Shown piece after piece: positions 1 to 7,608 of a DNA stretch of 7,608 nucleotides. How positions within the stretch are numbered: the stretch's first letter is position 1; each line of letters begins with the position of its first letter. The position numbers and the translations under genes are program-made. The notes under the pieces were generated by a model that ran no database searches, had not been told where the DNA came from, and was given only the letters and a program-made list of their open reading frames with translations. The stretch is taken from the IMG/VR virus record IMGVR_UViG_2703718816_000006, positions 1 to 7,608 of that record. The stretch is one strand, 5' to 3'. The stretch comes from a virus (taxonomy: Duplodnaviria; Heunggongvirae; Uroviricota; Caudoviricetes).

Positions 1-1617
1 CAGGGACATCAGGGATACCGCATTGAAGAGCGCCATCAGCGGGTCAATTTTCCCCCGTCCGCTGGCCTGTTTGGTAATAAGGATGGCGTTACCTCTGGGC
101 TCCACCCGGGCATTGCCAACGCACCAGGCCATCAGTGACTGACCACCATGCACCAGCACTCCCTCAGCCAGTTTGCGCTCGGTGGTTTTGATGGCCCCGC
201 CCAGCTTCCAGCCCTGGCTTATCCCCACCACAATTCCTTCGGGGATCCCGGCTTCTGCCAGTGAATCCAGAATCTGCCCCACACCTGACGGGTCAATACC
301 GATATGGTCCAGTAACTCAGCCTCATGAATACGACGCACATACTCCGCCACTTCCGCCGTGTCATCCCCGACCCGACGGACAATCGTCATGTCTCCACTG
401 GCCACAAAATCCTGAAACCGGGATGCTTCACTCTTCCGTCTGACCACCGCGGTTTCATGCGCCCAGGCATGGCCCCAGCCCAGCCATTCGCGGGTTTCCC
501 TGTCACGACCAATCACGTACATTCCCAGCAGATCATCCAGGCCCCCGCCGTCAATCCCCACCGTCACCACATCAGCGCGCTGCAGGATATCGTCCAGGCT
601 GACGCGCCTGCCCTGCTGCTCCCAGAAATCCGCACCCGCCCAGCGGTCAGAACGCAGGGCAAGACCAATTTCCACATTGGCGTGTTTTGACATGAAGCCA
701 CGAAATGCCTCCTCACCAGCCTCCCGGGCTTTACGGTACTCCCGATACAAAAAGGCCTCATCCACCGAATAACCGAGATTCGGGTTAACCATGGCGAGGT
801 TTTCCATCAGCAGGTGCTCACCGCGCTCCACCATCTCCGGCGGATGCTCAAATATCACCGGCAGAAAGTGCGGATCATTAATTTTGCCGTCGCGCACATC
901 CCGGGCGTACTGCAGTTTCTGTCTGAACACCCCGGCGGGCGGCTCATTCGACTGGGTGGTTGTGTACACAACAAACCCTTCCGGGCGGGAGGCAAGGCCG
1001 CCTATGGCTTCACGTAACATGTCCTCCGCTTTGTACTGCTTGCCAAACAGCCACAGTTCATCAATCAGCGTCCCCACGGACTTGATACCGGACACCGTAT
1101 TCGGATCGGCAGCCACCACCTTAAGGGTGGTGTCCGTCACCCTGTGGGTGATGGTCCGGATATGTGTCTGCACCTGACAGAGGTCATCCAGATCATCGTC
1201 CCGTCGTACCATATCCCTGGCAGGGTTGAAGGCGTTAGCCGCCACCTCCACGGTCGGGGCCAGAATGGTGTAGCCCGCCGCCTGCCGCCAGTTCAGTAAC
1301 AGCGCCGTCATCATGATCCCGGCAGCCAGCGTGGACTTGCTGTTTTTTTTGGGTATCAGAATGAACACTTCCTTTATATGGCGTATACCGGTCTGCGCAT
1401 CGTAGGAGCCAAACAGGGCCGCCACCAGGTCAAACACCCACGGTGCACAGGACTCCCCGAACGTCGGGCTGCCCGGTGCATCCACAATCCGCAGTTGTTT
1501 AAAAATCGCCAGGGCATGTGCGGCCTGCTCCGGGTAAATCGGAGCCGGAATAATCGACAGCCCCTTTTTCAGGCGCTCTGCCCAGTCCGGGCAGGCCGTG
1601 CTCCACACAGGTATCAT
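1..1617 (-). CDS. Terminase large subunit (ATPase + nuclease), partial: C-terminus lies beyond the left edge
   Basis: Manual translation from ATG at 1617..1615 gives MIPVWSTACPDWAERLKKG... and stays open to position 1 (end of window reads ...GRGKIDPLMALFNAVSLMSL). Deviant P-loop FILIPKKNSKST, Walker-B-like LIDELW, nuclease-like VGIDGGGLDD. The track omits it because there is no in-window stop. Start overlaps the TerS stop (ATGA). Confidence 0.88.
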   Translation of the reverse strand, partial: MIPVWSTACPDWAERLKKGLSIIPAPIYPEQAAHALAIFKQLRIVDAPGSPTFGESCAPWVFDLVAALFGSYDAQTGIRHIKEVFILIPKKNSKSTLAAGIMMTALLLNWRQAAGYTILAPTVEVAANAFNPARDMVRRDDDLDDLCQVQTHIRTITHRVTDTTLKVVAADPNTVSGIKSVGTLIDELWLFGKQYKAEDMLREAIGGLASRPEGFVVYTTTQSNEPPAGVFRQKLQYARDVRDGKINDPHFLPVIFEHPPEMVERGEHLLMENLAMVNPNLGYSVDEAFLYREYRKAREAGEEAFRGFMSKHANVEIGLALRSDRWAGADFWEQQGRRVSLDDILQRADVVTVGIDGGGLDDLLGMYVIGRDRETREWLGWGHAWAHETAVVRRKSEASRFQDFVASGDMTIVRRVGDDTAEVAEYVRRIHEAELLDHIGIDPSGVGQILDSLAEAGIPEGIVVGISQGWKLGGAIKTTERKLAEGVLVHGGQSLMAWCVGNARVEPRGNAILITKQASGRGKIDPLMALFNAVSLMSL

Positions 1618-2177
1618 CCGTTGCCCTCATTATCATTATTCACCACCAGGCGGGGTGGTGGTGGCACCGCAAAACGGTTAGCCGCTTTTTTCGCCGCGTC
1701 ACCTTTTGCCGATTTTTTACCGGCATCCCCTTTTTTGTGGTGCGTGAACTGCGCCAGCTTATAAGCCACATCCAGCGCCAGCCTGGGGTCGGTATTAATG
1801 TTCTCCACCAGAAGACGCCCCATCGCTTTCACCGGATCGGGAAGACCGTCCTCCATATACTCAATACCAGGAGATATCACCACGGGCGGTGGCATCTCCG
1901 GATTTGTTTCGTCCTGCTGTGGTATTGCAGCCGCCTCACGGCGACGGGGTTTATCCTCCTGCTCTGATTTTTTCTGCCGGTAAACAGGAACCTCATCCAC
2001 CTCCACCGTCTCGCACTGTTTACGGGCTATAAACGCAAGCACCTCCGGATCTTTTGCCAGCTGCGAGCCTTTAACCCTGGCTGTCTTCGCCGAATAACCG
2101 GCGGCAATGGCTGACGCTGTTTTGTTTTTCCCGGACATGAGCGCCAGCGCAAATTTTCGTTTTTGCGTTGTCAGCAC
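1614..2177 (-). CDS. Terminase small subunit
   Basis: 187-aa ORF immediately upstream of and overlapping TerL; basic, Lys/Ala-rich N-terminus typical of DNA-binding small terminases. Start is GTG at 2177 preceded by GGAGGAGG (complement of 2180..2187). Family assignment is from position and composition, not from a search. Confidence 0.75.
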   Translation of the reverse strand: MLTTQKRKFALALMSGKNKTASAIAAGYSAKTARVKGSQLAKDPEVLAFIARKQCETVEVDEVPVYRQKKSEQEDKPRRREAAAIPQQDETNPEMPPPVVISPGIEYMEDGLPDPVKAMGRLLVENINTDPRLALDVAYKLAQFTHHKKGDAGKKSAKGDAAKKAANRFAVPPPPRLVVNNDNEGNG

Positions 2178-2467
2178 AGCCTCCTCCCGGGTCCAGAACG
2201 CACTCAGCCGGGTATGGTTCAGCCCATTTTTCCCGGCGTCTCATGCCGCAAATGTTAACTGCTGCCTGGTTAACATTTGCTGAAAAAGCCTGTTAACATT
2301 TTTTCCACGCAACAAACTGAATAATAAAGATAAAAACCGAAAAAATGCCCGGGCAGCCAGTTAACATGTTAACTGCCCTGAAACGGGAATTTTTTCTCTG
2401 CGTGAGAGGGGGCGCGGTGTCCGGAGCGATCGTTTTTTACGCCGGATGATACCCCCCCCCGGTCGGG
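2178..2467. promoter_or_regulatory. Candidate cos / packaging-initiation region between HNH and TerS
   Basis: 290-bp non-coding gap in the position where HK97-like phages carry cos. Contains a GTTAACAT palindrome cluster (2248..2375), a GC-rich core cgtgagagggggcgcggtgtccggagcgatcg (2401..2432), a T6 run and a C9 homopolymer (2452..2460). Exact cos ends cannot be determined from sequence. Confidence 0.4.
2248..2375. repeat. Cluster of five GTTAACAT octamers (three direct, two inverted) in two palindromes
   Basis: Inverted repeat gcaaatgttaac-N9-gttaacatttgc (2248..2280), a further copy at 2292..2299, and the perfect 18-bp palindrome cagttaacatgttaactg (2358..2375). Confidence 0.7.
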
Positions 2468-2833
2468 TTACAGTCCGATGATGTCGTCCGCTCTGCCACT
2501 ACCTCCGGACACCTCCGGCAGCGTCGGGTCCGGCATACCACCCGCCGCTTCACGAGCAGACTTTTGTCGATGGCATTCGGTACAGAGCGTCCAGAGATTC
2601 GTCTCCTCATTACCACCACCGAACTGAAGTGCAATTCGGTGATCGAGTTCACTGTCACAGAGGTCAACCACACGACCACAGAGACAGCACTGCCCGGCGT
2701 CCCTGAGCCAGATATGACGCTTGAGGGAAACACGTGCACTGCCACTGACACGACGCTGTTCACCATTCAGAATATTCACCCGTCGGGTATTCAGTGTTTT
2801 GATTCTGCTCTGGAGTGTACGAAGCTCAGCCAT
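2468..2833 (-). CDS. HNH endonuclease (terminase-associated type)
   Basis: 121 aa with HNH signature CCLCGRVVDLCDSELDHRIALQFGGGNEETNLWTLCTECH (CxxC...DH...N...CxxCH). ATG at 2833 with GGGGA upstream. Sits directly upstream of cos/TerS as in HK97-like packaging modules. Confidence 0.85.
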   Translation of the reverse strand: MAELRTLQSRIKTLNTRRVNILNGEQRRVSGSARVSLKRHIWLRDAGQCCLCGRVVDLCDSELDHRIALQFGGGNEETNLWTLCTECHRQKSAREAAGGMPDPTLPEVSGGSGRADDIIGL

Positions 2834-2874
2834 GTAAAATCCCCGTCATATGGCAATCAGTAAAGGAAATAAAT

Positions 2875-3045
2875 ATGTCATCGAAAAACCGGACCCGCAG
2901 AACCACAACCCGCAATATCCGTTTCCCCAATCACATGATTGAACAGATCAACATCGCCCTTGAGCATAAAGGGTCCGGTAACTTTTCAGCGTGGGTTATT
3001 GAAGCCTGTCGCCGGAGACTGACAACTGACAAGAAAACATGCTAA
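2875..3045 (+). CDS. Small ribbon-helix-helix (Arc/MetJ/CopG-like) DNA-binding protein, 56 aa
   Basis: ATG at 2875 preceded by AAGGAAAT (SD about 7 nt upstream). MSSKNRTRRTTTRNIRFPNHMIEQINIALEHKGSGNFSAWVIEACRRRL fits the RHH pattern of basic N-terminus, beta-strand, helix, Gly turn, helix. Divergent from HNH (41 bp between starts). Called by motif resemblance only. Confidence 0.55.
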   Translation: MSSKNRTRRTTTRNIRFPNHMIEQINIALEHKGSGNFSAWVIEACRRRLTTDKKTC

Positions 3046-3240
3046 TCGCATAACAAGTTTAAAGAATGAGGCCAGAGGGTCGGACCGTTTCTCTGCCCCT
3101 TTATATAACTAATCTTTAACATTGCCGGCTTTACGATAACTTAAAGTTATTACCTACAGTTATTCCGAATTGAAATAATCCGTCACATAAAATAAAACAA
3201 AAGAATAATAATAATAATCTTCTACCCTTATCCAATCTTT

Positions 3241-3271
3241 ACTGCTGTGCGCCAACACAGCAGTTTTTTTT
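3241..3271 (+). terminator. Rho-independent terminator (plus strand)
   Basis: Stem ctgctgtg (3242..3249) / cacagcag (3256..3263), 6-nt loop, then T8 (3264..3271). Probably ends the RHH transcript and/or unit 1 of the AT-rich island. Confidence 0.6.
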
Positions 3272-3804
3272 GATTATGCTCACATATTTTTTATTCCCCA
3301 GCCGTGATGCACATTACACCTGTTTCTTTTCAATTCAGGCTTTTTCCAGGTATATCTGAATCTCATCCGGTGGCTTCTGCATCGTTATCAGCAAAAAATA
3401 CGGCCGCTACACTGACAAAAGCTCTCGAGAGCAGTTGCACCCATTTTTCGCTTAAAGATTCACTCAGTAAAATAAGGAGAAATTCACAATCATGTTCAGG
3501 CGGCAAACATTATAAAATTAAAACGCCAGACTTGCATAAATAATCCTATGAAGGCTGAACATACTTAAAGCAGTGTGTTATATAAGAGTAAACAACACCC
3601 TATAAAAACCTGCCCCCACACAAGGAGCCACAAAGGCAATTTTATACGCTCCAAACATTATTCAGAAAAGCTTAACAATAAGAAATATTCTTTTCGTCAT
3701 TCATCTCAACTGTCTGATGGACACCGCCCAGTCCCGCAACATGGAGCATAATAGAAGTAAATAACGTATAGTAAGTATTATAATTCAGGCTCGATTATTT
3801 CGAG

Positions 3805-3832
3805 TTGAAAACAACTCTGAAAAAATGATAAT
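3805..3832 (+). promoter_or_regulatory. Candidate sigma70 promoter (TTGAAA - 16 bp - GATAAT)
   Basis: -35 TTGAAA at 3805..3810 and -10 GATAAT at 3827..3832 with TG immediately upstream; palindrome ctcgattatttcgag (3790..3804) abuts the -35. By-eye prediction only. Confidence 0.3.
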
Positions 3833-3838
3833 AAAAAA

Positions 3839-3907
3839 ATAACAACAATACCATTCTCTTCTGCATGTGCCATCACCTGCCGTTGCTACAACCCGGCAGG
3901 TTTTTTT
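3839..3907 (+). ncRNA. Candidate small RNA (~65-70 nt) between predicted promoter and terminator
   Basis: Predicted start about 7 nt after the -10, ending at the 3876..3907 terminator; no ORF with an RBS in the interval. Purely structural inference, no homology known to me. Confidence 0.25.
3876..3907 (+). terminator. Rho-independent terminator (plus strand)
   Basis: Stem cctgccg (3876..3882) / cggcagg (3894..3900) with an 11-nt loop, followed by T7 (3901..3907). No T-run on the other strand, so unidirectional. Confidence 0.6.
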
Positions 3908-4107
3908 ATTGTCTAAACTCCAGATTCTTCCACCATCGCACCGGACTGGCGACTATGAGGGGACAACGCCGCGCTCCGTTAACGCGGTAAACCCCGGTGT
4001 GTATCGTTTTTGATTATCCCCACAAACTCTCGCAGAGGAGTCTCCCTGTCGGGCTGCGGTATCTGTTAATGCGGGAATACGGCGACGATACGGCGCATCA
4101 GCAAAAC

Positions 4108-4575
4108 TTATTTCAGACACTGAGTGCGGATATATTCCTGCGCCCCTTCCAGCTGCTTCTGCATTGTCATCAACCGTTCTCTGAGGATGAAATAATCCCA
4201 TTCAGCGGTGTCTGCCAGTCGGGGGCCGGTTGCATTATCCACGCCGGAGGTGCCGGTGGCTTCACGCACGGTACCGGAGCAGGTGGCGTTGATCCGCAGG
4301 CGCTTACGACCAGCGGCAACATCAGCACGCAGAGTTTCATTTTCAGCTCTCGCATCGGCTAATTCCCTCGAGTATCTGGCATCAAGCGCAGCAACATCAC
4401 CCTGGCGCTGCTGCATATCAGTAATAGTGGCATTCGCCAGTTTCAGCTCACTGACTTTTTTATCGCGCTGCGCTTTGTAGGTGATGGCGTTATCACGGTA
4501 ATGATTCAGCCCCAGACTAAGCACACCACAGGCTACCAGCAGGGCAATGATGACCACGCACAGAACACGGTTCAT
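4108..4575 (-). CDS. Rz: Rz i-spanin (inner-membrane spanin subunit)
   Basis: 155 aa from ATG at 4575: [40 protein letters not shown]...[20 protein letters not shown]-terminal TM helix plus coiled-coil periplasmic domain, closely resembling lambda Rz as I recall it. The track ORF extends 28 codons further upstream, judged non-coding. Confidence 0.9.
4170..4355 (-). CDS. Rz1: Rz1 o-spanin lipoprotein, embedded in Rz in an alternative frame
   Basis: 61 aa [61 protein letters not shown]: lipobox LVVSAC and Pro-rich mature region, closely resembling lambda Rz1. Lies entirely inside Rz. Confidence 0.85.
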
Positions 4576-4674
4576 ATCACCACCAACGGATTGCCCAGAC
4601 CAGAACAGCAATGGCCACAATACGAATGGAAAATGCCATTGCCCGAATAAATTCAGCACTCATCTTTTTAAAGT

Positions 4675-4857
4675 TCACGATTTCAGCGCAATGACCAGTT
4701 TTGCCAGCCCATACAGCATCGGAGACACAGCGATACCAACCGCCACCCACTTAATAGCAAAAGCCAGCGCTCTGCTGATGTCATCAGTTACTGGCGCTTT
4801 CAGTTCAAGGCCGTTTTTCATAGTCAACCTCAACAGAATTCGTTTATACTTTTCCAT
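4675..4857 (-). CDS. Hypothetical small membrane protein (60 aa; alternative start at 4821 gives 48 aa)
   Basis: ATG at 4857 preceded by AGGGAG; alternative ATG at 4821 preceded by GAGG. One C-terminal hydrophobic helix ALAFAIKWVAVGIAVSPMLYGLAKLVIAL. Sits between endolysin and Rz; no family recognised. Confidence 0.4.
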   Translation of the reverse strand: MEKYKRILLRLTMKNGLELKAPVTDDISRALAFAIKWVAVGIAVSPMLYGLAKLVIALKS

Positions 4858-4894
4858 GTTCTCCCTTGCCTTATCCAAGGTCAGAAACACAAAA

Positions 4895-4924
4895 CCCCGC
4901 TTGCTGCCAACAAACGGGGTTTTT
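4895..4924. terminator. Hairpin with T-runs on both sides (bidirectional terminator-like)
   Basis: Stem ccccgcttg (4895..4903) / caaacgggg (4911..4919), 8 of 9 bp, 7-nt loop, then T5 on the plus strand and TTTTGTGTT on the minus strand. Between the endolysin stop and the small membrane gene. Confidence 0.4.
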
Positions 4925-5013
4925 ACTTTTATTCACTTAGGTTTTGCCAGTTCGCAGGATTTCGTGTTATCCGCCCGCGTTGGCCAACGTCATTTTTCAG
5001 CAAAATATTCTGC

Positions 5014-5547
5014 TTATCTGTCGACTCCCCAGCACGCCAGCGCACTCTCCTGGTCGCGACGGGATACCTGACCGTAGCAATTATTTGAGCGAATACGGCA
5101 GTCTCTGCCACCGTCCTTAATCCACCAGCGAATCGCTTCACACGCTCCCCTGCGATCGCCTGCATTAATTCGTTTATAAAACGTCGACGGGAAACACTTA
5201 CCGGGGCCAATGTTGTACGGACAGAATGACGCGATCCCCGCTTTCTGGGGTTCGCTCAATGGCACTTTGATGTTTTTCTCCACCCATGCCAGCGCCTTAT
5301 CACGCTCAATGGCGTTAACCCGGTCGCATTTTCCCTTCGACAGCTTCATGCCAGGAATAACAGGCTTACCATCCACCCGGGTGGCTCCACGGCAGATGGT
5401 CCAGATCCCCGCACCATCACGGTATGCCGTGGTGTGGTTACCTTCTTTTTCGTCAAGAAACTGGTCGAGGATTTCAGGCGCAGACGCCCCTGCACCAATC
5501 AGCGCCAGAACGGCAGCCGACAGGCCGTATCGGATTTTTGCGTTCAT
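5014..5547 (-). CDS. R: SAR endolysin (T4-lysozyme-like / GH24 muramidase with signal-anchor-release N-terminus)
   Basis: 177 aa. Catalytic motif E-x8-D-x5-T in DEKEGNHTTAYRDGAGIWTICRGAT; N-terminus MNAKIRYGLSAAVLALIGAGASA is a Gly/Ala-rich weakly hydrophobic helix typical of SAR domains. No strong SD upstream of the ATG at 5547. Confidence 0.85.
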   Translation of the reverse strand: MNAKIRYGLSAAVLALIGAGASAPEILDQFLDEKEGNHTTAYRDGAGIWTICRGATRVDGKPVIPGMKLSKGKCDRVNAIERDKALAWVEKNIKVPLSEPQKAGIASFCPYNIGPGKCFPSTFYKRINAGDRRGACEAIRWWIKDGGRDCRIRSNNCYGQVSRRDQESALACWGVDR

Positions 5548-5675
5548 GGATATTTATCAGGATTTATCGGTTCCGGCCCCCTGGATATGTTAAGTCTTCA
5601 GCCTGCCAGTGGTGGGCACTGGCGTTTTATCTGCTGGCTGAAAATATATCTGACAATTCCAGTCGAGGATTAACC

Positions 5676-5990
5676 ATGCATAACCATCAACATAATTATG
5701 ATTTATACCTGCAAGCCATAAATGAGCGGGTAAAATCGGAATGCCTTTTACTCCTCCTGCAAGAACACGAAGCAGTAAAGGCCATTCAGGCTGAACCGTA
5801 TGGAGCTCTCACTACTGCAACTCTCAGTATTATATCCGGAGCATTAACACCAACCTTGCTCCTTCGCCTGAAAGACAATATAGATGACTGGTTAAACGAA
5901 GAATTAAACTACCTTGAATGTGAGTGGGATCATCATTACGCCAAATCACAAAAAGAACGCATCTTCCGTCGATTATCCGGCAACAGATAA
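5676..5990 (+). CDS. Hypothetical protein, 104 aa, convergent with the 213-aa gene
   Basis: ATG at 5676 preceded by GAGGA (5665..5669). Protein-like composition, no TM segment, AT-richer than the flanking phage genes. The track ORF 5424..5990 extends upstream into the endolysin gene on the opposite strand; the internal start is preferred. No family recognised. Confidence 0.45.
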   Translation: MHNHQHNYDLYLQAINERVKSECLLLLLQEHEAVKAIQAEPYGALTTATLSIISGALTPTLLLRLKDNIDDWLNEELNYLECEWDHHYAKSQKERIFRRLSGNR

Positions 5991-5999
5991 CGAGCCAGC

Positions 6000-6641
6000 T
6001 TATATACGTCCTTTAAGATAAGTCAGTCCGGGATGAAACCAGTAAGCCGGCACTTTTTTAAAGGGCGGATTATCAAAATCACGAAGAAGAGCCTCCCGCA
6101 CAACTGCATCCTTGTCCGCACCACTGGCCAGCGCTTCAATCTCAGCAGCTACCTGCAGATATCCCATGCAACGACCAATGCGCTGCATCAGCCCCTGCTT
6201 TTTATTGTTCTTCAGGTAATCAATGGCAAATTCAGTGAGCGCCTCACTGTGCTGGTGCGATGCCGGTGTTACTTTCCCATCTTCACGGATCGTGATATTC
6301 CAGTCATCGCTGCTCACAATAAAAGATGGCCGATTACACTCCCATTCCTGGTCTTTATCCGGTGCAGACGCAATAAAATAACGTTTATTGCCTTCCTCTC
6401 CGGCACTTTTAACCGTAATGGAGTACTTTTCTGACAATGCGGTCGGTAAAAACTTTTCCTGCAAAATATTCGCAAAGGTCCTGCGAGCAATTTTGATGCA
6501 ATCATCGTAAAACGCCGCAAACTGCTCATCGCGGCGTTTTTTTGCATCTTCAGAAGGCATCAGCGCCGACAGTTTTTTATTCAGTTCAGCAATTTCATTT
6601 TCCAGACGACTTATGCGCCGATTCATTTCTTCATGCTTCAT
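6000..6641 (-). CDS. Hypothetical protein, 213 aa, translationally coupled to the holin
   Basis: ATG at 6641 lies 3 nt after the holin stop (TAG at 6647..6645) with GGGGAGAG inside the holin 3' end. N-terminal coiled-coil-like segment RRISRLENEIAELNKKLSAL, soluble, no motif I recognise. Inserted where phage-21-type cassettes have holin and endolysin adjacent. Confidence 0.6.
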   Translation of the reverse strand: MKHEEMNRRISRLENEIAELNKKLSALMPSEDAKKRRDEQFAAFYDDCIKIARRTFANILQEKFLPTALSEKYSITVKSAGEEGNKRYFIASAPDKDQEWECNRPSFIVSSDDWNITIREDGKVTPASHQHSEALTEFAIDYLKNNKKQGLMQRIGRCMGYLQVAAEIEALASGADKDAVVREALLRDFDNPPFKKVPAYWFHPGLTYLKGRI

Positions 6642-6644
6642 TAT

Positions 6645-6860
6645 CTACTCTCCCCGGGCCGCCTTACGCCGGTCTTCTTTAATTTTGAAATACAGGTTAG
6701 TCAGATACGTCAGCAGACCAAACAGCAGACTCCCCAGCACGCCTATTGCCGCCCACTGAGACGGGGAAACCCTGTCCAGCAGCTGCAGGAACCAGTAGCC
6801 CGTCCCCACCGCTGACGTGGTGTATGACACACCTGTTGTGATTTTTTCCATCTGGTACAT
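6645..6860 (-). CDS. S: Class II holin of the phage 21 S21 pinholin type, with dual-start motif
   Basis: 71 aa [71 protein letters not shown]: two TM segments, charged C-terminus, Met1/Met4 dual start (antiholin/holin). Closely resembles S21 as I recall it; GGGAGA upstream. Confidence 0.88.
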
Positions 6861-6935
6861 ATCCCGTCTCCCGCAATCCGGAAGCTCACAACAACAAGAG
6901 GGGCATCAGCTCACACCGACAGCCCCTGCGCATGG

Positions 6936-7205
6936 TTACATCATCATTTCGCCGTCAGGCTGAGGCTCACTGCCACCATCAGGCTGAGACACGACACCAT
7001 CTGAAACAGCACTGTCACCCGCACCGTCTTCAGGCCCGGGAGCAGCCGTTACCCCCAGCAGTTCATCCAGAATGGCATCCACTTCAGCATCAAGACGCGC
7101 CTCAAGATTCTGGCGGAGTTGCTGTTTCAGTACGCTTCTGACTTCTTCAGAGCGCAGGACTTCCTTCACTGCTTCAGCAGTGACCAGCGGTTTTATTTCT
7201 GACAT
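6936..7205 (-). CDS. Hypothetical acidic protein, 89 aa
   Basis: ATG at 7205 preceded by a weak SD (GAGAAAATACC). MSEIKPLVTAEAVKEVLRSEEVRSVLKQQLRQNLEARLDAEVDAILDELLG... then an acidic Gly/Pro/Asp-rich tail. The track ORF 6936..7319 is an upstream extension overlapping the next gene and is rejected. No family recognised. Confidence 0.4.
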   Translation of the reverse strand: MSEIKPLVTAEAVKEVLRSEEVRSVLKQQLRQNLEARLDAEVDAILDELLGVTAAPGPEDGAGDSAVSDGVVSQPDGGSEPQPDGEMMM

Positions 7206-7242
7206 GGTATTTTCTCGTTGAAAGGTGTTGTTAAGAAAGTTG

Positions 7243-7425
7243 CTACGGAATGAGAGGCTCTTCGGGTTTTGTTCCGGCTGACTGACTGGCGCTGATTTTC
7301 TCAGCGGCCCTTTTGTCAATCTGTCTGCGCCAGAAATCTCTCACGACTCTGTACCCACCAGAAAGAAGATACAGCACACAAACTGCTGTACAGAAATACA
7401 ATAAAATAAGCTGTATAAATGTCAT
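7243..7425 (-). CDS. Hypothetical small membrane protein, 60 aa
   Basis: ATG at 7425 preceded by GGAG (spacing about 7). N-terminal TM helix FIQLILLYFCTAVCVLYLL followed by a basic tail. Upstream of the holin in the same orientation. Confidence 0.45.
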   Translation of the reverse strand: MTFIQLILLYFCTAVCVLYLLSGGYRVVRDFWRRQIDKRAAEKISASQSAGTKPEEPLIP

Positions 7426-7519
7426 TATTCATCTCCATTATTGACATGGTTAATGCCTGCCAGTAAAAAACTCCTGCATTTTTTGCTCAGCATATTTTTG
7501 CTAAGGATGTAGCGACCTC

Positions 7520-7568
7520 TGCCGCCGGTTCTGGCTCCTTGTTTTCCCTGCCCCGGCGGCATTTTTTT
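7520..7568 (+). terminator. Terminator-like hairpin plus T7 on the plus strand
   Basis: 9-bp GC-rich stem tgccgccgg (7520..7528) / ccggcggca (7553..7561) with a long 24-nt loop, then T7 (7562..7568). No T-run on the minus strand. Function unclear; may belong to the late promoter/regulatory region. Confidence 0.3.
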
Positions 7569-7608
7569 ATCCTGCTTACGCGTTATTCACTTCCACTGTT
7601 ATACTTTC

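Follow-up and report, generated by a model that had tools for sequence, protein, structure and literature searches.

Between the endolysin gene R and the i-spanin gene Rz of a lambdoid prophage lies a small gene, under strong purifying selection, for a predicted inner-membrane protein. It occupies positions 4675..4857 on the minus strand of a 7,608-nucleotide (nt) stretch of viral DNA (IMG/VR record IMGVR_UViG_2703718816_000006, Caudoviricetes, positions 1 to 7,608; hereafter the window). Its product of 60 amino acids (aa; MEKYKRILLRLTMKNGLELKAPVTDDISRALAFAIKWVAVGIAVSPMLYGLAKLVIALKS), here called family A, corresponds to RefSeq WP_052834940.1 and matches PHROG 1115 with an E value of 6e-47. 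Upstream of the gene stand a terminator-type hairpin and a short leader, and the three move between phages as a unit. Our preferred explanation, held tentatively and at a little under an even chance, is that they form a portable, promoterless cassette in the late, Q-dependent operon of lambdoid phages, from which a late accessory inner-membrane protein, insulated by a terminator, would be made at the end of the lytic cycle. The original prediction, made from the letters of the window, had pointed to a small membrane-protein gene and a hairpin at this place. The gene is real, the hairpin is of terminator type and the insert is moron-like, whereas a releasin-like function, or one bound to the signal-arrest-release (SAR) endolysin, is not supported (see below).

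The open reading frame (ORF) at 4675-4857 is a true protein-coding gene under strong purifying selection. The ratio of non-synonymous to synonymous change (dN/dS) was estimated with homologous DNA from prophages of E. coli, E. marmotae and Salmonella. It is 0.05-0.13 in the hydrophobic C-terminal half, where synonymous sites are near saturation (proportion of differing synonymous sites, pS, ~0.6 between E. coli and Salmonella copies), and 0.2-0.55 in the N-terminal half. The N-terminal extension is kept as protein between family A and the related family A' despite nucleotide differences, and the frame is unbroken in both Escherichia and Salmonella copies, as it is in 25 unique alleles. Selection of this strength at near-saturated synonymous divergence shows that the ORF is real and not junk. 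It could be argued that the ORF is a by-product and that the hairpin alone matters, as a terminator or an mRNA-stabilising stem-loop at a recombination joint between modules; the homology of mosaic phages does often end at, or just past, the hairpin, and the ORF is missing from working relatives. Such a view is contradicted by the strong purifying selection against a background of near-saturated synonymous change, as well as by the intact frame, and we regard it as hardly credible. The absence of the ORF from K-12 Qin, Stx2_14040 and VT2-Sakai, all of them related working phages, indicates instead that the gene is accessory, not essential. Absence or disruption in related functional phages was the refuting condition given with the original prediction, and it tells against an essential role.

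Translation could begin at two in-frame sites. The ATG at 4857 has the sequence GGGAG 3-4 nt upstream, and a short form of 48 aa (4675..4821, minus strand) would start from an internal ATG, codon 13 (ATG13), which is preceded at 6 nt by GAGG. ATG13 (4821) is invariant in 25/25 unique alleles and is the called start in most of the distant relatives. The first start varies among alleles (ATG, GTG or TTG), and the N-terminal extension is still kept as protein. At one IMG/VR locus (L099) the first ATG has become ACG and the remaining ORF is intact, so that only ATG13 or an upstream GTG is left as a start. A 71-aa version from such a GTG is possible in the window (4675-4890, minus strand); this codon, at 4890, was rejected as a start, being situated within the terminator U run and missing in Salmonella versions. 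The membrane protein may therefore exist in 60-aa and 48-aa forms. The ORF of 48 or 60 aa originally proposed between endolysin and Rz is thus confirmed, with Shine-Dalgarno (SD) sequences at both starts, a coding signature in dN/dS and one C-terminal hydrophobic helix.

AlphaFold2, run with 28 relatives, models two helices, at residues 2-18 (predicted local distance difference test, pLDDT, 60-73) and 23-59 (pLDDT ~90), with a mean pLDDT of 79. Residues 30-58 (4684..4770, minus strand) form the conserved, marginally hydrophobic part of the C-terminal helix, with K36, P46 and K53 inside. Its 19-residue maximum on the Kyte-Doolittle scale is 1.90 (residues 38-56), which is hydrophobic. The Hessa scale gives a marginal +3.7, near the value for the SAR segment of R (+4.7) and unlike that for the membrane segment of Rz (-3.5). 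Eight Lys or Arg residues (net charge +4) fall within the first 37 residues, and the most hydrophobic 19-residue stretch is followed by just four residues, a single Lys among them. Under the positive-inside rule this charge distribution predicts an N-in tail anchor, with a basic cytoplasmic N-terminal helix and a C-terminal membrane helix. The topology prediction thus agrees with the single C-terminal membrane helix first proposed, with the qualification that the helix is marginal on the Hessa scale.

The hairpin upstream of the gene (AAAACCCCG...CGGGGUUUU; 4891..4923, minus strand) has 15 pairs, with an A run on one side and a T run on the other, and could thus act on either strand. As minus-strand RNA it folds with -21.1 kcal/mol (z = -3.0 against shuffles) and is followed by the tail GUGUUUCUGA; as plus-strand RNA it folds with -14.3 kcal/mol (z = -1.7) and is followed by UUUUUACUUUUAU. 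A G+C-rich stem-loop with a U run, as in intrinsic terminators, is found in both directions, the sense tail reading UUUUGUGUUUCUGA and that of the other strand UUUUUACUUUUAU. In 25 distinct versions of the hairpin, pairing is kept in 96.7% of cells, and at three stem pairs both partners have changed; the inner stem and loop vary among copies without loss of pairing. The covariation score is 0.174, compared with 0.115 in shuffles (reached in 0/500), and slid partners score at most 0.065. Mean stability over the 25 versions is -22.4 kcal/mol in the sense and -19.7 kcal/mol in the antisense direction, the sense fold being the better one in 21/25. From these comparisons the hairpin looks like an intrinsic terminator kept by compensatory changes, and the strong hairpin with T runs on both strands that was noticed at the outset is real and covarying. 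It had also been suggested that this hairpin limits read-through into the spanin genes. This is reasonable solely for RNA polymerase that is unmodified by Q; in VT2-Sakai, Rz is present although the hairpin is missing.

The leader (4858..4890, minus strand) consists of the U-rich tail GUGUUUCUGA, a small hairpin CCUUG-GAUAAGG-CAAGG, and the SD sequence GGGAG. Folding of single sequences predicts pairing between the U-rich tail and the SD, beside the small conserved hairpin CCUUG/CAAGG. In the Stx2a version, as read from the sequence, GACU/AGUC stands in its place. A search of Rfam with the window and eight related loci gave nothing above threshold at the hairpin or leader. Matches to the rimP leader on the antisense strand (25.6 and 36.2 bits, with a cut-off of 47 bits) were sub-threshold and were set aside as terminator look-alikes.

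Hairpin, leader and ORF move together between phages as one cassette. In all lysis-cassette copies examined the ORF is preceded by the same element, ATAAAAG..AAAACCCCG-(18 nt)-CGGGGTTTT, followed by TTTTsTGTTTCTG(n)ACCTTGnnnnAAGGCAAGGGAGAA and the start codon. A scan of IMG/VR for an exact pattern covering the 3' side of the hairpin and the leader found at least 119 loci. The genes upstream of the shared element differ, and include lysozymes of three lengths, a GH19 endolysin with a lambda-type holin, GH108 endolysins with two other holins, and a 138-aa protein. At one locus a P22-type antirepressor gene is inserted between lysozyme and hairpin. The ORF sits between endolysin and Rz behind five holin/endolysin combinations. 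This portable cassette, and a truncated paralogue described below, were missed by the original prediction.

These contexts bear on the idea, put forward originally, that the protein is a specific regulator of the SAR endolysin or the pinholin, releasin-like or antiholin-like. The holin of the window is indeed of phage-21 type and its lysozyme has an N-terminus of SAR type, and among the matches listed the upstream gene is a lysozyme of that type in 93 of the 104 classifiable IMG/VR loci (the others have GH19, GH108, antirepressor, methylase or baseplate genes). This excess is partly owed to the exact DNA pattern used in the scan. Having two starts in one frame is reminiscent of the dual-start motifs in holin genes, and the helix resembles SAR segments in its weak hydrophobicity. 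Against this, a protein that is >78% identical follows GH19 in a cassette with a lambda-type holin, GH108 in cassettes with other holins, and, elsewhere, the antirepressor gene; no similarity to holin families was found, and the protein lacks every defining feature of the Mu releasin. A function tied to SAR endolysins was rejected, since the protein occurs behind GH19, GH108 and other endolysins as well, and we consider a specific regulator of this kind very unlikely.

The slot before Rz is itself variable. Behind the common hairpin and leader there are, among the IMG/VR matches listed, one to three small ORFs, usually followed by Rz. These ORFs belong to several types: family A (the ORF of the window), A', a hybrid of A and A' (L029), B (VFDFSKLIREIRVMAEKLSTWKFLLIWLVFLILASGYFVGQIRWW), C (MSDKLITLAKILCVIVGISFSLMLVALFLSMAWMMLSSSGLLG) and others; most often the order is A, C, Rz. 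A short polar N-terminus and one hydrophobic helix ending at or near the C-terminus are common to families A, A' and B; in family C the hydrophobic helix is close to the N-terminus (residues 11-29). The stop codon of the small ORF is 1-19 nt before the start of the next ORF or of Rz, a close coupling. In the window the slot also holds a second small ORF of 28 aa (4577..4663, minus strand), a 5'-truncated paralogue of family A' that is carried in RefSeq as a pseudo fragment and shares PHROGs 4493 and 3246 with the main ORF. The final codons of this fragment, ...CGTTGGTGGTGA, stop 1 nt short of the Rz ATG and resemble the ribosome-binding site of Rz, which may be why the fragment has survived.

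Copies also occur in decayed form and away from Rz. In the Stx2a phage Stx2_14040 the family B ORF behind the hairpin is interrupted by an in-frame stop. VT2-Sakai has the gene ant instead of the hairpin, then a family C ORF before Rz. The same hairpin and leader with a family B ORF lie between baseplate genes in the record of Actinobacillus phage pPE4, and divergent family A copies are found at prophage ends and after tail-fibre genes, with different terminators before and after.

Some of these loci merit separate mention. The VT2-Sakai ORF (NC_000902.1, 2850-2984) is unannotated and encodes a single-helix protein of 44 aa, MISDKLITLVKSLCVLVGISFLVMLVAIFFSTAWRVLTLSGLVG, between ant and Rz; the exact protein occurs on 170 contigs and close relatives on ~1000. 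The pPE4 record (PP818812.1, 'Actinobacillus phage vB_Apl-pPE4') carries RecT, exodeoxyribonuclease VIII, Kil, DicA, YdaT and Hok, a gene set typical of Rac-like or lambdoid prophages of E. coli, and its hairpin and leader are 82% identical in DNA to those from E. coli; the stated host may deserve a check. Four cassettes of E. marmotae type (L012, L044, L091, L110) have a GH108 endolysin, family A, a family C-like ORF and then an ORF of 60-65 aa with a lipoprotein-type signal (..FFLVGC..), and no recognisable Rz/Rz1 pair was found there.

Turnover of this sort raises the alternative of exclusion or counter-defence. In this view the variable small inner-membrane proteins of the slot would keep out the DNA of competing phages or counteract a membrane-bound host defence; gp15 of HK97, a small inner-membrane exclusion protein, is encoded by a moron in the tail region. 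Conflict would explain both the turnover of families in the slot, where unrelated families and tandem, decayed and hybrid copies share one position, and the copies beside tail-fibre genes; positions after tail-fibre genes and at prophage ends are classic for morons. Exclusion by a prophage requires expression in the lysogen, and in this locus the gene stands behind a strong terminator and a search for a promoter found none. The family A protein is also conserved, with dN/dS far below 1 and no diversification, and has no match in PADLOC. On balance a role in exclusion is possible but unlikely.

A further alternative comes from the arrangement of promoter-like sites. None was found in the sense direction on the minus strand between 3900 and 7000, and a search by eye upstream of or overlapping the hairpin yielded weak 7/12 matches alone, which were discarded. 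The sole promoter-like site in 3900-7000 is antisense, TAGTCA-18-TATACT (4821..4850, plus strand), of sigma-70 type and directed toward the hairpin ~40 nt away. All family A alleles scanned carry T(A/G)GTCA-18-TATACT; in A' alleles TATACT is combined with TGGACA or TCAACA across a different spacer. Where the common hairpin is followed by a family B ORF, antisense promoter-like sites are weak or missing. The site overlaps codons 3-18 (4804..4851, minus strand), which show near-zero synonymous variation among the 25 unique family A alleles, compared with variation in 29/42 of codons 19-60. The same codons contain the internal SD GAGG with ATG13, and are predicted to form a hairpin, GAGGUUG/CGGCCUU, whose loop holds AUG13. 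Any of antisense site, internal start and AUG13 hairpin could contribute to the constraint.

The locus might accordingly be read as a module resembling type I toxin-antitoxin systems, in which the protein would be a membrane toxin and a putative cis-antisense RNA of ~75 nt, transcribed from the site within codons 3-13 (4821-4850, plus strand) and ended by the hairpin, would cover start codon, SD and leader and block translation. This would account for the orientation and conservation of the antisense site, in altered form also in A', and for the lack of synonymous variation in codons 3-18. It is also in keeping with the stability of the hairpin on the antisense strand, where the T run is good, with the predicted sequestration of the SD in the leader, and with the tandem paralogues, which are typical of type I loci. 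In L010, a copy of unrelated sequence, the better T run of the upstream terminator seems, by eye, to be the antisense one. Other observations do not fit. There is no sense promoter for a toxin in 3900-7000, most versions of the hairpin fold more stably as sense RNA, and searches showed no resemblance to Hok, Ldr, Ibs, TisB or other Pfam families, nor to an Rfam small RNA (sRNA). Conserved codons (K-Y-K; L-T-M), like the internal SD and AUG, fall on the promoter hexamers, and this overlap is a possible reason why the hexamers are so constant. Because family B ORFs behind the same hairpin have weak antisense promoter-like sites or none, we rank a type I module as a rival, below the late-operon cassette, and think it improbable though worth keeping in view.

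In the late-operon explanation a strong intrinsic terminator would be placed past the endolysin gene, the short structured leader would supply the ribosome-binding site, and the gene product would be a small tail-anchored inner-membrane protein. In lambda, late transcription under Q is expected to pass terminators at which other transcription stops, and genes for Q-type antiterminators are found upstream of the holin in related loci. Q-modified RNA polymerase would similarly pass the hairpin described here, so that the small protein would be made with the spanins and late in the lytic cycle only. We infer production from the late transcript alone because no sense promoter fits between hairpin and start codon, a distance of 33 nt from hairpin to ATG. 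In the lysogen the terminator, possibly together with an antisense RNA, would keep the membrane-active product and the spanins silent. Located in the inner membrane, the protein would most likely modulate the final steps of lysis, through holin triggering or spanin action, and would be dispensable rather than an essential lysis factor. The stem-loop could additionally stabilise the 3' end of the S-R message.

Several points weigh against this explanation. A role in lysis is suggested by position and timing only, and its occurrence in tail or baseplate regions and at the ends of prophages shows that the protein needs no lysis cassette. The variability of the slot would equally fit a function in an arms race. 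Read-through by Q is drawn by analogy from the biology of lambda, Q and pR' being outside the window; the near-invariance of codons 3-18 is not explained by the late-operon model alone; and a search of the literature on the small-ORF family found nothing. A bolder version, to which we attach rather little weight, would make the slot before Rz/Rz1 the site of an unrecognised class of interchangeable tail-anchored microproteins. These would be carried on a terminator-leader cassette, controlled at the RNA level (by the dual start and/or a cis-antisense RNA with a shared bidirectional terminator), and would tune the last steps of lysis via the inner membrane or the spanin.

PHROG 1115, of unknown function, is the sole family assignment of the small ORF. 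No match was found in Pfam (E up to 0.1), NCBIfam or PADLOC, whether the query was the small ORF or a member of families A', B or C, and the PHROG search of these families returned unknown-function families alone. A word-indexed protein search listed 120 clusters, nearly all from Escherichia or Salmonella, and a full profile search of 1.84 billion representatives returned 21 relatives, all of one small family; relatives are named hypothetical or 'transmembrane protein' throughout. Judged from these searches, the family is probably confined to prophages of the Escherichia/Salmonella type. Within these it is common: the ORF was matched in 1580 of 5426 complete E. coli genomes (29%), O157:H7 included, over at least 80% of its length in 1037 of them, and the isolated phages PhiR12_1 to _5 and PhiR5_2 carry an intact copy. 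The main text of the translatome paper on enterohaemorrhagic E. coli (EHEC) does not mention genes of these families.

The lysis cassettes of phages of Gram-negative bacteria are taught as holin, endolysin and spanin, with an occasional antiholin or releasin, and here a selected small membrane protein is found inside such a cassette. Its ORF matches ~29% of complete E. coli genomes and is one of several interchangeable genes that share a terminator-leader cassette. Whatever the function, there is a consequence for annotation, as relatives are unannotated or labelled pseudogenes in reference records such as that of VT2-Sakai. Should the protein tune lysis or release, it would matter for the release of Shiga-toxin (Stx) phages and for designing lysis modules; should it prove to be an antisense-controlled toxin, a late operon would contain a new type I-like family.

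The remainder of the window is organised as follows. Its lysis cassette is of phage-21 type, with the late genes on the minus strand, and positions 4600-5100 are 100% identical over 501 bases to a prophage of E. coli OkiPb01678, from bovine faeces. The holin gene S (6645..6860), assigned by Pfam (Phage_holin_2_1), PHROG and RefSeq matches, encodes a phage-21-type class II holin of the pinholin family. It is followed by a 213-aa ORF (6000..6641; PHROG 1085, function unknown) and by R (5014..5547), a phage lysozyme by Pfam and PHROG with a weakly hydrophobic, SAR-type N-terminal segment. Past the R stop codon is a non-coding stretch of ~90 nt (4924..5013) which, by sequence comparison, is kept in Stx phages and, as read by eye, partly kept in Salmonella loci. 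Rz (4108..4575), an i-spanin of 155 aa, and Rz1 (4170..4355), the o-spanin encoded inside it, were both identified by Pfam and PHROG; all of these features are on the minus strand. An HNH endonuclease gene and then the terminase genes lie downstream of Rz/Rz1. As originally stated, R is directly followed by Rz in canonical cassettes; in K-12 Qin, R overlaps Rz (rrrQ/rzpQ) and there is nothing between them.

The gap between S and R (5548-6644) contains, besides the 213-aa ORF, a 104-aa ORF on the opposite strand (5676-5990, plus; PHROG 1853), immediately upstream of which is a terminator-like site (5604-5624, plus); the cassette thus has further inserts. Between Rz and a gene of the YlcI/YnfO family there is ~1 kb (3046-4107) that is unusually long for non-coding phage DNA. 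It has no ORF longer than ~80 aa except one on the plus strand (3997-4362) that is mostly antisense to Rz, a search of it for tRNA genes found none, and just the first 219 nt past Rz are common to Stx phages. Weak, far sub-threshold matches to the Esr41 family, an EHEC sRNA (23-31 bits, with a cut-off of 102 bits), are located upstream of the holin gene in three related phages, at 7485-7570 (plus) in the window, 159-235 (minus) in Stx2_14040 (L016) and 566-642 (minus) in VT2-Sakai (L019). Above-threshold matches to Rfam STnc100, which we take to be the short pR' transcript, occur upstream of Salmonella holin genes (L004, 1653-1860; L007, 45-245 and 977-1201; L008, 194-395 and 660-860).

Among known systems, the Mu releasin gp25, to which the gene had been likened, is 99 aa long, is anchored by a membrane segment at its N-terminus (N-out, C-in), has an acidic domain of ~70 aa in the cytoplasm, belongs to DUF2730, and is confined to transposable phages (PMC9239132). 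The protein described here is not a releasin: it has a C-terminal helix and a basic N-terminal part (eight Lys or Arg, net +4), has no DUF2730, and comes from lambdoid prophages whose antiterminators are of Q type and whose terminases are of cos type or other kinds. Together with P2 lysA, Mu gp25 nevertheless offers a precedent for a non-essential membrane protein gene near endolysin and spanin genes. The small ORF is homologous to neither and is not bound to one endolysin type; P2 LysA is larger and has several membrane segments. Dual-start holin/antiholin genes, such as those for S105/S107 of lambda and S68/S71 of phage 21, are similar in having two in-frame starts with SDs, a longer form with a positive N-terminus and a predicted RNA hairpin at the second start. 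They differ in having two or three membrane segments, compared with one marginal C-terminal helix here. A separate holin is present in every cassette examined, and the small ORF has no match to Pfam or PHROG holin families.

Type I systems with a 5'-overlapping antisense RNA include SymE/SymR and Hok/Sok. The locus resembles them in encoding a membrane protein of at most 60 aa, in the sequestered SD, in the tandem paralogues and in the conserved antisense promoter-like site aimed at a terminator. It differs in that there is no toxin promoter and no similarity to toxin families, and the hydrophobic helix is C-terminal and marginal. The hokW-sokW pair of Sp5 shows that a small membrane toxin can aid the release of an Stx phage (PMC8621323), a precedent that also speaks for the late-operon explanation.

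There are also close parallels with the morons of lambdoid phages, which likewise are extra, dispensable genes, mobile between contexts including tail-gene clusters and bounded by an intrinsic terminator. As Juhala et al. are said to have described them in 2000, morons are extra genes with their own promoter and terminator, located between genes that are adjacent in relatives. The moron originally suggested is thus supported as regards an extra mobile gene between R and Rz, and not as regards a promoter of its own; the terminator is upstream of the gene, with one downstream only in the tail-region copy L010. The tight coupling to the next late gene is a further difference, and it leads us to expect late expression rather than expression in the lysogen. 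The gene fits known kinds, as a moron or an accessory lysis gene.

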